Source: a virus
Virus genome (UHGV): UHGV-0061378
Length of the DNA: 40,142 nucleotides
Direction: 5' to 3' (one strand)
The translations under genes and the position numbers were made by a program. Position 1 is the stretch's first letter; each line of letters starts with the position of its first letter. Below are positions 4,215-34,197 of this stretch, piece after piece. A model generated the notes under the pieces. That model was not told where the DNA came from. It made no database searches and worked only from the letters and a program-made list of their open reading frames with translations.

Positions 4215-4282
4215 GTCAATATTTCCTAATCCGATTTGTTGATACCGAAGCCCTGACTGTTCCCGCAGTTGGGGCTTCAACT

Positions 4283-30371: not shown

Positions 30372-31088
30372 ATGGAAAATAAAAAATCACTGACGACAGA
30401 ACAGCTCGAAGACGCTAAGCGGCTTAAGGCTTTGTATGAGTCAAAAAAGAAAGAATTGGGAATAACCCAATACTCAATCGCTGATGAACTGGGTATCACC
30501 CAAGGAGCGGTAGGGCATTATCTTAATGGCAGAAACGCGCTAAACGTTGAGGTTGCATCTGGTTTTGCACGATTGTTGCAAGTCTCAATTGCTGATTTTA
30601 GCCAGTCAATTGCTGCCAAGGTTGCAGAACAGGCAGAAAGCCTTAAGAGCGATGCCAACGTAAGGTATGCAGGGGAATACAGAGCAGGAAAGAGGTATCC
30701 GGTGTTAAGCAGTATCCAGGCTGGCTCGTGGTGTGAAGCATGCGAACCATACACCATTAAAGACATAGATGTTTGGCTTGAGTCTGACGCGCATATTCAA
30801 GGTAATGCGTTTTGGCTTAAAGTGGAAGGTGATTCAATGACGGCACCGGTTGGGTTAAGCATTCCAGAGGGAACATTCGTTCTTTTCGATACCGGAAGGG
30901 AGGCGATCAACGGCAGCTTGGTCATAGCAAAACTTTCTGACTCTAACGAAGCAACATTCAAGAAGCTGATAATCGACGGCGGAAATAAATACCTCAAGGG
31001 ACTTAATCCTGCATGGCCTCTCGTGCCAATCAATGGAAACTGCAAGATTATAGGCGTTGCAATTGAGACAAAACTAAGGCTGGTTTGA
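30372..31088 (+). CDS. cI: CI repressor (HTH plus LexA-like S24 peptidase domain)
   Basis: 238 aa; N-terminal HTH (…ELGITQYSIADELGITQGAVGHYLNG…) and C-terminal S24 region (…EGDSM…KL…); divergent from cro. Confidence 0.9.
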   Translation: MENKKSLTTEQLEDAKRLKALYESKKKELGITQYSIADELGITQGAVGHYLNGRNALNVEVASGFARLLQVSIADFSQSIAAKVAEQAESLKSDANVRYAGEYRAGKRYPVLSSIQAGSWCEACEPYTIKDIDVWLESDAHIQGNAFWLKVEGDSMTAPVGLSIPEGTFVLFDTGREAINGSLVIAKLSDSNEATFKKLIIDGGNKYLKGLNPAWPLVPINGNCKIIGVAIETKLRLV

Positions 31089-31105
31089 TCACGCAAGGGG
31101 CGATT

Positions 31106-31474
31106 ATGGTTGGAACCGCTATAGCAAGCTTTTTTGGGATGTTGGCAATCTCGACAATTTACGGCTTAGCGCATGCTTTTATTGCGAAATCTCTATCAGA
31201 AAAAATAAGTCAGGCTTGGGCGCATAGATCAGCTCGTTTCATGATTCTAGTGATCATAGCAATACAAGGGATATCTGCATTTATCCTCTATGGTTCAAGC
31301 TTATACCTGTTGTATCAAGGCGCGACATTTACGCCTTACACCAGTGATTACGGAACGCTATACGATGGTAGTGAAGACATCTCTATGGCTTGGATCGTCT
31401 TTGGTTTATCTATGGCCGTGTCTGTTGTAGCAGACATCATTAAGGTAATTCTCGTCTTAACCTTCGCTGACTAA
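31106..31474 (+). CDS. Small polytopic membrane protein downstream of cI (rexAB position)
   Basis: 122 aa from ATG 31106 (AAGGGG SD), 18 nt after the cI stop with no terminator between; 3-4 hydrophobic segments. Confidence 0.6.
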   Translation: MVGTAIASFFGMLAISTIYGLAHAFIAKSLSEKISQAWAHRSARFMILVIIAIQGISAFILYGSSLYLLYQGATFTPYTSDYGTLYDGSEDISMAWIVFGLSMAVSVVADIIKVILVLTFAD

Positions 31475-31560: not shown

Positions 31561-31650
31561 AATATCCTTTGTATTCATTTGCTTATCATTATTTCACCAA
31601 AAATAAATACCTTGGGTATTTACACAATAAAATACCTACAGTATTCTTTA
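31561..31650. promoter_or_regulatory. OL/pL region: operator palindromes AATAC-N5-GTATT (31606..31620, 31631..31645, degenerate 31561..31575) with putative pL
   Basis: Same half-site consensus as OR; putative pL -35 TTTACA (31619..31624) and -10 TATTCT. Confidence 0.65.
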
Positions 31651-31692
31651 GCCATCAGCAGGACGCTGGTAGCCAAACGGAACAGATTGGCA

Positions 31693-31733
31693 GGCTCTTT
31701 AACATTGATGGGATTGTCCCGCCGAAATGCGGG
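31693..31733 (+). promoter_or_regulatory. nutL (boxA GGCTCTTTAACA plus boxB hairpin CCCGCCGAAATGCGGG)
   Basis: Downstream of pL and upstream of N; boxB is identical to the nutR copy. Confidence 0.75.
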
Positions 31734-32049
31734 AACCAAAGAGTAGTTGGCTTTGGGGTGACGTGAAGTGCAGCTGCACGACGGCAACCGGAAGATAAGC
31801 ACCCGGCGCGTCACCGCCAAAGTCAATTCCATAGGCGTTATGCAGCCGCCACCATATTCAAGAAAGCTGCACAAGAGGTAGGAGGATTTATGTGAATACT
31901 TACATTCAATTGAGAGATTAATTAAATAGAACTGATCGAGCAGAGTCCATAAAGGCTCATAAATGCTCTTCCATCCCCGTCTAATTGGCGGGGAAGGAAA
32001 CCACTTTGCAATCACTATCAATTCCAAAGTTGTTTCATCGGAGGTCAAC

Positions 32050-32349
32050 ATGACAGTAGTCATTACATATCTGGCTGACGATAACGCCAGAAATCGCCGC
32101 AGAGCACGCAGACAGGCTCAACGTGAGCAGGCAATGCAAGAGCAGCGACTGGCGCGAAAAATTGCGCTAAAGCTCTCTGGTTGCGTCAGAGCAGACAAAG
32201 CAGCATCACTCGGAAGCCTTCGCTGCAAGAAGGCAGAAGAAGTCGAGCGTAAACAGAACCGTATTTACTACCGCAAGCCACGCAGTGAAATTGGTGTGAC
32301 TTGTGTTGGTCGCCAGAAAATGAAATTAGGCAGCAAACCACTTATTTGA
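32050..32349 (+). CDS. N: Antiterminator N-like protein
   Basis: 99 aa from ATG 32050 (GGAGG SD) with arginine-rich motif DNARNRRRARRQAQREQA near the N-terminus; first gene after pL/nutL. Confidence 0.75.
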   Translation: MTVVITYLADDNARNRRRARRQAQREQAMQEQRLARKIALKLSGCVRADKAASLGSLRCKKAEEVERKQNRIYYRKPRSEIGVTCVGRQKMKLGSKPLI

Positions 32350-32360
32350 GAGGAATTAAT

Positions 32361-32984
32361 ATGTCATCAATCCGCTTAACTACGAGAATGAAAGAGAAAA
32401 TCGCTCGTAACGCTTTAATTAAGTCTGGGGTTTTCACTGAACTTGAAGAAGTAATAAAGTTAAAGAACCAGCTTGCACTTGACGCCAGAGTTATTGCGTT
32501 TGGCGGTAAAAAGAAAACTGAGGAAGTGGATCAGTTATCATCCAAGTTAGTAGCTATAAGTGAAGAACTTGAAAAGATGGGATGTTCATTTTACTCATAC
32601 GATGTTCGTTCTACTTCGATTTATCTGACTGTATCTGGAAGAAGGGTTGGCTGGCATTCATACGGAAAAGACGGCAACGGTGAAGATATATTGCTCCCCA
32701 CCCCAGAAAAAGATAAATGCATGTTTGACGCAGAACACGAAATAACAAAAAGGTTTGATGAAATCTGCGCATTGCAACAAAAACTTGAAGCCAAGAAAAA
32801 GGATATCGAATCAAATGTATTGGCTGCTTTGAACTCAGTCACAACAGTTAAGCGACTTATTGAAGTTTGGCCTGAAAGCAAAGAATTGCTACCAAAAGAA
32901 GCAGATAAAGCAAGTACAGCACTTCCTGCTTTACGGGTAGAAGATTTGAATAAGATGATTGGACTTCCTCCCGAGGCCGCATAG
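32361..32984 (+). CDS. Hypothetical protein (ral/sieB/gene-17 position)
   Basis: 207 aa from ATG 32361 with GAGAGG SD, immediately after N; no recognisable motif. Confidence 0.6.
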   Translation: MSSIRLTTRMKEKIARNALIKSGVFTELEEVIKLKNQLALDARVIAFGGKKKTEEVDQLSSKLVAISEELEKMGCSFYSYDVRSTSIYLTVSGRRVGWHSYGKDGNGEDILLPTPEKDKCMFDAEHEITKRFDEICALQQKLEAKKKDIESNVLAALNSVTTVKRLIEVWPESKELLPKEADKASTALPALRVEDLNKMIGLPPEAA

Positions 32985-33021
32985 TCGGCCTTTATTTTTG
33001 GCATAAACAACAGAGGCTAAC

Positions 33022-33318
33022 ATGGAATTTAAAGGTACTGAAGGTAAGTGGGAAATAATGATGGATGGCGATGAGATTAAAATCATCCAGGCAGACTCAC
33101 TTGAAAATGGCGCAGGCTGGCGTTCGTATATTGCAATCTGTGAGGAAGTTCAATGCATTGAAGATGCCAATCTAATAGCGGCAGCACCTGACCTTCTCGA
33201 AGCACTTCAGTTATTACTTAAGCAATCCAAAAATAGAACAACGACAACATATCCAGAATGGTATGGAGCTGTTAATAAAGGTCTTGCAGCAATCAGAAAA
33301 GCTCTTGGGGATAAGTAA
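33022..33318 (+). CDS. Hypothetical protein
   Basis: 98-aa ORF with AGAGG SD in the pL operon. Confidence 0.55.
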   Translation: MEFKGTEGKWEIMMDGDEIKIIQADSLENGAGWRSYIAICEEVQCIEDANLIAAAPDLLEALQLLLKQSKNRTTTTYPEWYGAVNKGLAAIRKALGDK

Positions 33319-33506
33319 TGAAAGTAAAAATAACTGCTTCTAATACCAGTTTTGTTAGTGTTGGTGATATTACAGAAGTAATGACAAACCATGATGGAAC
33401 ACAAGTTATGTGGTCTGATTTTTGTAAAAGATATGAGCGAGTCGCTTGGTGTAAACTCGTATGGGGCGTCGAATACGAAGAATTACCTGAAATGCATGAC
33501 GAATAA
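33318..33506 (+). CDS. Hypothetical protein
   Basis: 62-aa ORF whose start overlaps the preceding stop (TAATG). Confidence 0.45.
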   Translation: MKVKITASNTSFVSVGDITEVMTNHDGTQVMWSDFCKRYERVAWCKLVWGVEYEELPEMHDE

Positions 33507-33512
33507 GCACTG

Positions 33513-33539
33513 TGTATTCATTCCAACGAGTGAATACAC
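33513..33539. repeat. 9-bp perfect inverted repeat GTGTATTCA-N9-TGAATACAC
   Basis: Read directly; arms contain the operator half-site GTATTC/GAATAC. Confidence 0.6.
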
Positions 33540-33601
33540 GGAGCAATGTCGCTCGTAATTAAACAGGAGCCGACTTGTTCTGATTATTGGAAATCTTCTT
33601 T

Positions 33602-33628
33602 GCCCTCCAGTGTGAGGGCATTTTTTTG
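33602..33628 (+). terminator. Rho-independent terminator inside the pL operon (tL1-like)
   Basis: GCCCTC-CAGTGT-GAGGGC followed by ATTTTTTTG. Confidence 0.75.
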
Positions 33629-33639
33629 ACGGAGGAAAT

Positions 33640-33951
33640 ATGAAATTACGTGTCTGGCATATCCCGCAAGTACCTATGAAACCGTTCATTGCAGAAGTGG
33701 CAAGTGTTGAAGAGGGTGTTCGCCTGATGGACGCACTGGCTGATTATGACGCCTTTCAGTATGACAACAACATCAAGCCTGATTACTGCAATGCTAACGG
33801 CCTTGAGATGTGGGATGAGAGCCTTACCGATGAAGATTTATCAGAGATGGGGCTTACTGATCGCTGGGTGGATTGGTACAGCGAATGCCAATATTACGAC
33901 GACCCACGTAAATATCTCGAAAGCCTGAAAGAAGAGACATCAGCCGCCTAA
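33640..33951 (+). CDS. Acidic hypothetical protein
   Basis: 103 aa, GGAGG SD, strongly D/E-rich with several W/Y. Confidence 0.6.
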   Translation: MKLRVWHIPQVPMKPFIAEVASVEEGVRLMDALADYDAFQYDNNIKPDYCNANGLEMWDESLTDEDLSEMGLTDRWVDWYSECQYYDDPRKYLESLKEETSAA

Positions 33952-34026
33952 GCGCGGCTTTACCGCATACCAATAACGCTTCACTTGAGGCGTTTTCGTT
34001 ATGCAATCAAACAGAAGGAGCATCCT

Positions 34027-34197
34027 ATGCAACAGTTCGCTATTGCAGGGGCGGCATCGGTTCGCCCTTTCAACCCGATTTTATCGGTACAGCATTCACG
34101 AAAAAATATTTTAACCGGAGCAGACTTTAAACAACCAAGAATGAAAAGTTTGCTCGAAAAGCTTTGGGATATTTTGAAACAACAAGGCCGTCCATGA
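34027..34197 (+). CDS. Possible CIII-like protein
   Basis: 56 aa from ATG 34027 (AAGGAG SD): MQQFAIAGAAS...MKSLLEKLWDILKQQGRP loosely resembles lambda CIII (MQYAIAGWP...LIDILNQPG). Confidence 0.4.
   Translation: MQQFAIAGAASVRPFNPILSVQHSRKNILTGADFKQPRMKSLLEKLWDILKQQGRP

Follow-up and report, generated by a model that had tools for sequence, protein, structure and literature searches.

What does the small, strongly acidic protein encoded immediately upstream of cIII in this phage genome do during infection? The window, by which we mean the whole stretch of DNA that was analyzed (UHGV virus genome UHGV-0061378; 40,142 nucleotides), is the genome of a P22-like (Lederbergvirus-type) E. coli phage whose early region is nearest to those of phages HF4s, CUS-3, and HK620. 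The first-pass annotation, made from the letters alone, had described the open reading frame (ORF) as an early gene for a strongly acidic protein and had proposed that its product might be a DNA mimic or another anti-defense factor. When compared with protein family profiles, the deduced protein matched Pfam family PF17420 (GP17, "Superinfection exclusion gene product 17") with an E value of 1.9e-54 and a score of 182.3 bits (cutoff, 25), the match covering residues 1 to 98 of the 98-position profile, and it matched PHROG 1510 with an E value of 4.6e-57. By tblastn, it was 86.4% identical in amino acid sequence to gp17 of Salmonella phage P22 (UniProt P14109), and it was 98.1% identical to the copy carried by an Stx1a-converting phage (Stx1a_EH2115). 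No family was matched by gp17 in NCBIfam and PADLOC scans. A DNA comparison with P22 gene 17 gave a dS of 0.62, a dN of 0.078, and a dN/dS ratio of 0.12, which indicated a coding sequence under purifying selection. Judged from the sequence, that is, from the Pfam GP17 match and the dN/dS ratio, the ORF is a real gene, and it represents, in a P22-like phage of E. coli, the orthologue of P22 gene 17, a gene already known. As a catalogued P22 gene 17 homologue, the gene itself adds nothing new. The gp17 family is large and spans both phage lifestyles as well as host phyla.

Exact calculation gave a pI of 4.14 and a net charge of -14.4 at pH 7 (D+E = 23; K+R = 9; aromatics = 13), so that the description of the protein as strongly acidic was borne out; indeed, per residue (-0.14 per amino acid) it was the most acidic product among the 115 ATG-started ORFs of at least 60 amino acids on both strands of the window. 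A charge of -4 was carried by residues 1 to 58 versus -10 by residues 59 to 103. No transmembrane segment was found, the maximum Kyte-Doolittle 19-residue average being 0.89; the GRAVY value was -0.65, and the longest uncharged stretch was 9 amino acids. The further claim that the gene has a strong Shine-Dalgarno sequence of its own right after a terminator also held, since a GGAGG motif was read directly before the start codon and since a terminator-like hairpin with its run of seven T residues ended 13 nucleotides before the ATG. The same GGAGG was kept in P22 and H-19B in an alignment.

The assignment to an early operon was likewise right, as the gene order of the window agreed with that of P22 (Table 1). 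On the plus strand of the window, cI is followed by an ORF of unknown function, a pL-like promoter with nutL-like boxA and boxB sequences, and N, after which come a gene for an Nmad5-domain protein, orf98, orf62, 17, cIII, small ORFs, erf, ssb, and abc2; two small ORFs between cIII and erf occupy the kil/arf position. In P22 the order is 24, sieB/esc, ral, orf78, orf87, 17, c3, kil, arf, erf, abc1, and abc2. We take the boxA-boxB site to be nutL-like from its likeness to the boxA consensus. Gene 17 lies approximately 2 kb downstream of the pL-like promoter and the nutL-like site and behind two terminator-like sites, and with such a position in the pL operon it is expected not to be expressed in a lysogen.

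Table 1. Features of the window around gene 17, and candidate target genes in prophage Fels-2 (locations in the window unless stated otherwise)
Feature	Location	Strand	Description
sar antisense RNA	4216-4282	+	Rfam RF00262, 71.6 bits; marks P22-type immI region
129-aa ORF	31085-31474	+	PHROG 6534
pL-like promoter	31619-31647		Promoter scan
147-aa ORF	31620-32063	opposite	Overlaps N leader; probably spurious
nutL-like site	31693-31734	+	boxA-like GGCTCTTTAA (31693-31702); boxB-like hairpin TCCCGC-CGAAAT-GCGGGA (31717-31734)
Mechanical N ORF	31963-32349	+	Mechanical start at 31963
Antiterminator N homologue	32050-32349	+	PHROG 271, E = 5.3e-36; likely start at ATG 32050
Nmad5-domain protein	32361-32984	+	207 aa; Pfam E = 8.6e-71, full length; PHROG 1965; first gene after N
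Terminator-like site	32973-32992		End of Nmad5 gene
98-aa ORF (orf98)	33022-33318	+	pI 4.7; PHROG 1273
62-aa ORF (orf62)	33318-33506	+	pI 4.8; PHROG 10407
Boundary sequence (bsq4 in Sf6)	33505-33600	+	Conserved, structured, ends in terminator; lambdoid mosaic junction
Intrinsic-terminator-like hairpin plus T7	33601-33627	+	TGCCCTC-CAGTGT-GAGGGCA; consensus scan; "tL1" of the first-pass annotation
Shine-Dalgarno sequence of gene 17	33631-33635	+	GGAGG, 4 nt 5' of ATG; read from sequence
Gene 17 homologue	33640-33951	+	ATG 33640, TAA 33949-33951; 103-aa acidic cytoplasmic protein; PF17420 GP17/PHROG 1510
Hairpin over gene 17 stop codon	33942-33959	+	AGCCGC-CTAAGC-GCGGCT; -10.4 kcal/mol; T-tract only TTT
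Second downstream hairpin plus T-rich tail	33975-34004	+	In conserved leader before cIII; scan
cIII homologue	34027-34197	+	PHROG 550 CIII, E = 1e-22; next gene after 17
STM2723.1	Fels-2 NC_010463, 22639-24336	-	Annotated hypothetical, 565 aa; PADLOC AbiU 2.7e-112; Pfam AIPR 8.8e-43
STM2726	Fels-2 NC_010463, 24604-25335	-	243 aa; no family match

The two closest reference systems differed from the window in separate respects. P22 gp17, like the window protein, is 103 amino acids long, and the P22 gene has an equal Shine-Dalgarno sequence, an equal stop-codon hairpin, and the same pL-operon slot directly 5' of cIII; in contrast, the host of P22 is Salmonella whereas that of the window phage is E. 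coli, the interval between N and gene 17 holds sieB/esc, ral, orf78, and orf87 in P22 but the Nmad5-domain gene and two small ORFs in the window, and the T-tract after the 3' hairpin of gene 17 is shorter in the window than in P22. The gp17 of phage H-19B differs from the window protein by four amino acids, the H-19B and Stx1a-phage copies being approximately 96 to 98% identical to it. Upstream, these phages share an identical boundary sequence and terminator with the window, but unlike the window they have another N and immunity region and, downstream, another cIII allele.

The P22 reference genome carries for gene 17 the note "allows growth on phage Fels2 lysogen," and two publications (PMC6486243 and PMC9409062) name gp17, with reference to Semerjian, Malloy, and Poteete (1989), as a requirement for overcoming the Fels-2 exclusion system. 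A literature search returned no paper that describes the structure of gp17, names its target, or explains how it works biochemically. An anti-defense role for the window gene is thus supported by homology, and we consider it likely that this orthologue of P22 gene 17 serves as an early counter-defense against exclusion by a P2-like prophage, classically Fels-2. In the proposed mechanism, N would supply the antitermination needed for read-through to gene 17, and gp17, a soluble, strongly acidic 12-kDa protein, would be translated from the N-antiterminated pL transcript early in the lytic cycle. It would then neutralize the exclusion function, presumably of the abortive-infection type, of a resident P2-like prophage such as Fels-2, and with exclusion neutralized the infecting phage could grow. 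We infer that gp17 binds and blocks the defense protein directly, with a putative contact surface made up of P9-Q10-x-P12, Y36-D37-x-F39-Q40, K46-P47-D48-Y49-x-N51, and W76-x-D78-W79, and that the variable acidic C-terminal half may add electrostatics. Since the P22 phenotype is one of escape from exclusion, gp17 is misnamed in the databases: "superinfection exclusion protein" states the opposite of the phenotype and misleads annotation.

Conservation within the family bears on how such a protein might work. Acidity is a family trait, with a median pI of 4.12 and a median charge of -14.4 among 120 homologues. Residues L33, Y36, D37, F39, Q40, K46, D48, Y49, W76, and W79 were strictly conserved, and P9, Q10, P12, F16, N51, G54, and D88 were nearly invariant. 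The motifs W-x-I-P-Q-V-P, Y-D-x-F-Q, I-K-P-D-Y-x-N, and W-x-D-W, which were invariant or nearly so among 106 and 212 aligned members, are all present in the window protein. Positions 25 (E), 37, 48, 87, and 88 (all D) were acidic in more than 90% of members and D78 was acidic in 83%, the remaining acidity lying in segments of variable length; in the acidic stretch from residue 59 to 75, residues 63 and 67 to 70 were present in 31 to 40% of members and the rest varied in occupancy. We read this pattern, as far as an alignment allows, as that of a specific conserved binding surface accompanied by an acidic, length-variable part, rather than that of a fixed array of carboxylates.

An AlphaFold model built on the 106-member alignment had a mean pLDDT of 92.8 and a pTM of 0.82 and was composed of beta(3-8), beta(16-20), alpha(23-42), beta(52-58), alpha(64-70), beta(76-78), and alpha(89-102). 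A Foldseek search of the PDB with this model returned no match at an E value of 0.001 or less. The best matches were ERH proteins, with a probability of at most 0.90, an E value of 0.13 or worse, TM values of 0.43 to 0.49, and an rmsd of 6 to 8 A. ERH is similar to the gp17 model in size and in the order of strands and helices; however, the match was not significant, the sequence identity was 6 to 13%, and nothing suggests a common ancestry or function. A Foldseek search of BFVD returned only family members, and a sequence search of the PDB gave only chance PPR matches with E values of 0.2 or worse.

The spread of the family was determined by a profile search of 1.84 billion representatives, in which gp17 formed 1175 clusters (50% identity) at an E value of 0.001 or less and 762 at 1e-10 or less; 1175 clusters is a size expected for a mobile counter-defense gene. 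Among strictly virulent phages, homologues were found in Kuttervirus, in N4-like Gamaleyavirus, and in large Bacillus phages, and members also occurred on replicons resembling prophages in Bacillus, Paenibacillus, Clostridium, and Vibrio. Judging from composition, some members probably reside in high-GC hosts. A family spread over Firmicutes, Vibrio, and probably high-GC hosts implies that the target either must be widespread or must differ among members. In one Gamaleyavirus, a gene with an RNA_pol domain was followed immediately by a series of small ORFs in a common orientation, among them the homologue, and the neighborhoods of the homologues in one Kuttervirus and one Bacillus phage were uninformative. 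The presence of a gene 17 homologue in Kuttervirus phages is a point that others have raised with regard to phage therapy (PMC9409062). We also considered whether gp17 might be a gene of conjugative leading regions; this was ruled out, as the plasmid records were prophage-like or nonmobilizable in 15 of 16 cases. Two metagenomic homologues had an N-terminal extension of about 50 amino acids with a Walker-A-like motif (GAQASGKT in one and GPQCCGKS in the other) fused to the GP17 domain, and other long members were fused to Phage_gp49_66, to DUF6166, or to a domain resembling the RNAP alpha-CTD that scored below threshold; such fusions varied from one longer homologue to the next and did not point to a function.

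If gp17 counteracts exclusion by Fels-2, a candidate target might be sought in that prophage. Two accessory genes, STM2723.1 and STM2726, lie between the Fels-2 portal gene and the replication genes, an interval that we take to be a P2-type defense hotspot. AbiU has been listed among the defense systems of P2-like prophages and P4-like satellites, in which defenses occupy few hotspots (PMC13586616). On its profile matches STM2723.1 is an AbiU/AIPR protein. It was the sole recognizable defense gene in Fels-2, where five proteins were scanned for defense functions and the remainder of the prophage was judged by annotation only; STM2726 is an equally placed candidate. Copies of STM2723.1 with approximately 96.5% identity, annotated "AIPR family protein," are carried on E. 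coli chromosomes, and an E. coli phage could therefore meet the same system. Relatives of STM2723.1 and of STM2726 in E. coli genomes, at 96 to 99% identity, occurred apart from each other. The literature search found no paper linking gp17 to AbiU. That the target of gp17 is the Fels-2 AbiU/AIPR protein is offered as a lead and not as a result, and we hold it to be a tentative one, more apt to fail than to hold. The same low expectation applies to the wider proposal that gp17 might represent a widespread anti-defense family, with a fold outside the solved structures, directed against the AbiU/AIPR proteins of P2-like prophage hotspots. Were the lead true, an uncharacterized anti-defense family would be paired with a common single-gene abortive-infection system, gp17 would be the first known AbiU inhibitor, and the decades-old exclusion phenotype of P22 and Fels-2 would be explained.

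Among the other ways in which gp17 could act, DNA mimicry is the least improbable. An acidic surface that imitates the phosphate backbone would titrate a DNA-binding defense enzyme, e.g., a type I restriction enzyme, and the charge and pI of gp17, the conservation of acidity across the family, and the early placement of the gene are all in keeping with this. Ocr (gp0.3 of T7) and ArdA are, like gp17, small and very acidic phage or plasmid proteins with a role in counter-defense, and Ocr is likewise early. However, gp17 has no sequence or fold similarity to Ocr or ArdA, its model being of the alpha/beta type rather than the elongated helical dimer of the mimics, and the comparison with Ocr/ArdA-like mimics that had been suggested along with the first proposal turned up neither these two nor Ugi nor any other solved mimic among the 50 PDB matches listed. 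DNA mimics span many unrelated folds, and a missing fold match is thus not decisive. Moreover, the invariant positions of gp17 are mostly aromatic or polar, not acidic, and much of the acidity falls in parts of variable length; besides AbiU/AIPR, the scan of five Fels-2 proteins gave only a Dam-like orphan methylase as a defense-type match and no restriction enzyme; and the P22 pL operon already has ral for restriction alleviation. We know of no link between gp17 and restriction-modification. DNA mimicry is, in our judgment, unlikely. The anti-defense part of the first-pass proposal stands through homology to the genetically characterized P22 gp17, and the mimic part is left with the charge and no fold match.

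The conserved residues could instead form a pocket (Q10, Y36, D37, Q40, K46, D48, Y49, N51, W76, and W79), in which case gp17 would be a small-ligand binder, a sponge for an immune signal, or a small enzyme. Ten invariant residues in about 100 amino acids, mostly aromatic or polar and with a single lysine among them despite the strong acidity of the protein, would suit such a pocket, as would the distribution of the family across phyla, in which known sponge families are similarly spread. Against a sponge, none of the known ones was matched in fold among the 50 PDB Foldseek matches listed, anionic nucleotides bind poorly to a protein of strong negative charge, and the single AbiU-like defense gene of Fels-2 has no recognizable signal-producing partner. 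This makes a pocket-based function quite improbable. Even less probable is a role in host takeover through binding to a conserved host protein, e.g., as an ERH-like dimeric adaptor, with the escape from Fels-2 being indirect. Such a role would agree with the occurrence of the family across many host phyla and with the fact that the best PDB matches were all ERH, but the E values and rmsd of those matches make the fold assignment unreliable, and P22 can do without gene 17 on Fels-2-cured hosts. The least probable reading is true superinfection exclusion, in which the protein would shield a lysogen or an infected cell from other phages: the label is used by PGAP, PHROGs, and Pfam, but it derives from the exclusion-escape phenotype, gene 17 sits in a repressed operon behind terminators, phages that are virulent and never lysogenic carry homologues, and exclusion proteins of the SieA, Imm, and Cor type are membrane proteins expressed by the prophage, whereas gp17 has no membrane segment and is predicted not to be expressed from one. 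Rather, the lack of a membrane segment, the position in the repressed pL operon, and the homologues in strictly virulent phages all agree with escape from exclusion, the reading that we prefer.

The terminator in front of gene 17 had been labeled tL1, and this label is doubtful. The hairpin (33601-33620) has 7 pairs, 5 of them G-C, is followed by T7 at 33621-33627, and has a folding energy of -12.3 kcal/mol; in mEpX1, Sf6, and HK75 the annotation calls this element a terminator. An equally good terminator-like site, however, lies at the end of the Nmad5 gene, the first after N, and since that site comes earlier, the one before gene 17 does not come first in the operon. The tL1 of lambda directly follows N, and terminators nearer to cIII make up the tL2 group.

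The hairpin closes a conserved boundary element that was found in 327 phage records, nearly all at 95 to 99% identity, and that is annotated in Sf6 as "bsq4; boundary sequence | terminator." Boundary element and terminator together (33505-33630) had a fold z-score of -5.5, and in the P22 copy the first hairpin was retained despite changes on both arms. An Rfam scan of the whole window yielded only the sar RNA and no family at the element 5' of gene 17. These features hint that the approximately 120-nucleotide element (33505-33627) may function as an RNA or DNA structure beyond its part as a recombination junction.

Gene 17 itself behaves as a cassette. Downstream, P22 annotates the stop-codon hairpin as the gene 17 terminator. 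The second downstream hairpin was kept in mEpX1, which has no gene 17. Both flanks of mEpX1, that is, the boundary element as far as the hairpin on one side and the leader of cIII on the other, were nearly identical to those of the window; the first hairpin of mEpX1 leads, through a short run of T residues, into the spacer found 3' of the stop-codon hairpin in the window. From this alignment, gene 17 behaves as a separate unit, complete with Shine-Dalgarno sequence and 3' hairpin, that is set between conserved flanks. In HF4s, other genes occupy the slot. Of 5426 complete E. coli genomes, 2227 were matched by a 471-nucleotide query that ran from the last 41 nucleotides of the boundary element through the terminator and gene 17 into the downstream spacer, but just 133 of these were matched over at least 80% of the query length; the gene 17 homologue was thus present in 133 of the 5426, and these counts fit an insert between conserved flanks.

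Several smaller features of the region were also recorded. The likely start of N follows a GGAGG sequence and gives a protein of 99 amino acids. Nmad5 stands for "nucleotide modification associated domain 5," and the gene is another accessory gene of the variable N-to-cIII interval. The two small acidic ORFs that follow it (98 and 62 amino acids) adjoin the boundary element on its 5' side, their stop and start codons overlapping. Directly 3' of cI and 5' of the pL-like promoter lies the 129-amino-acid ORF, and in lambdoid prophages the slot downstream of cI often holds genes that are expressed in the lysogen.
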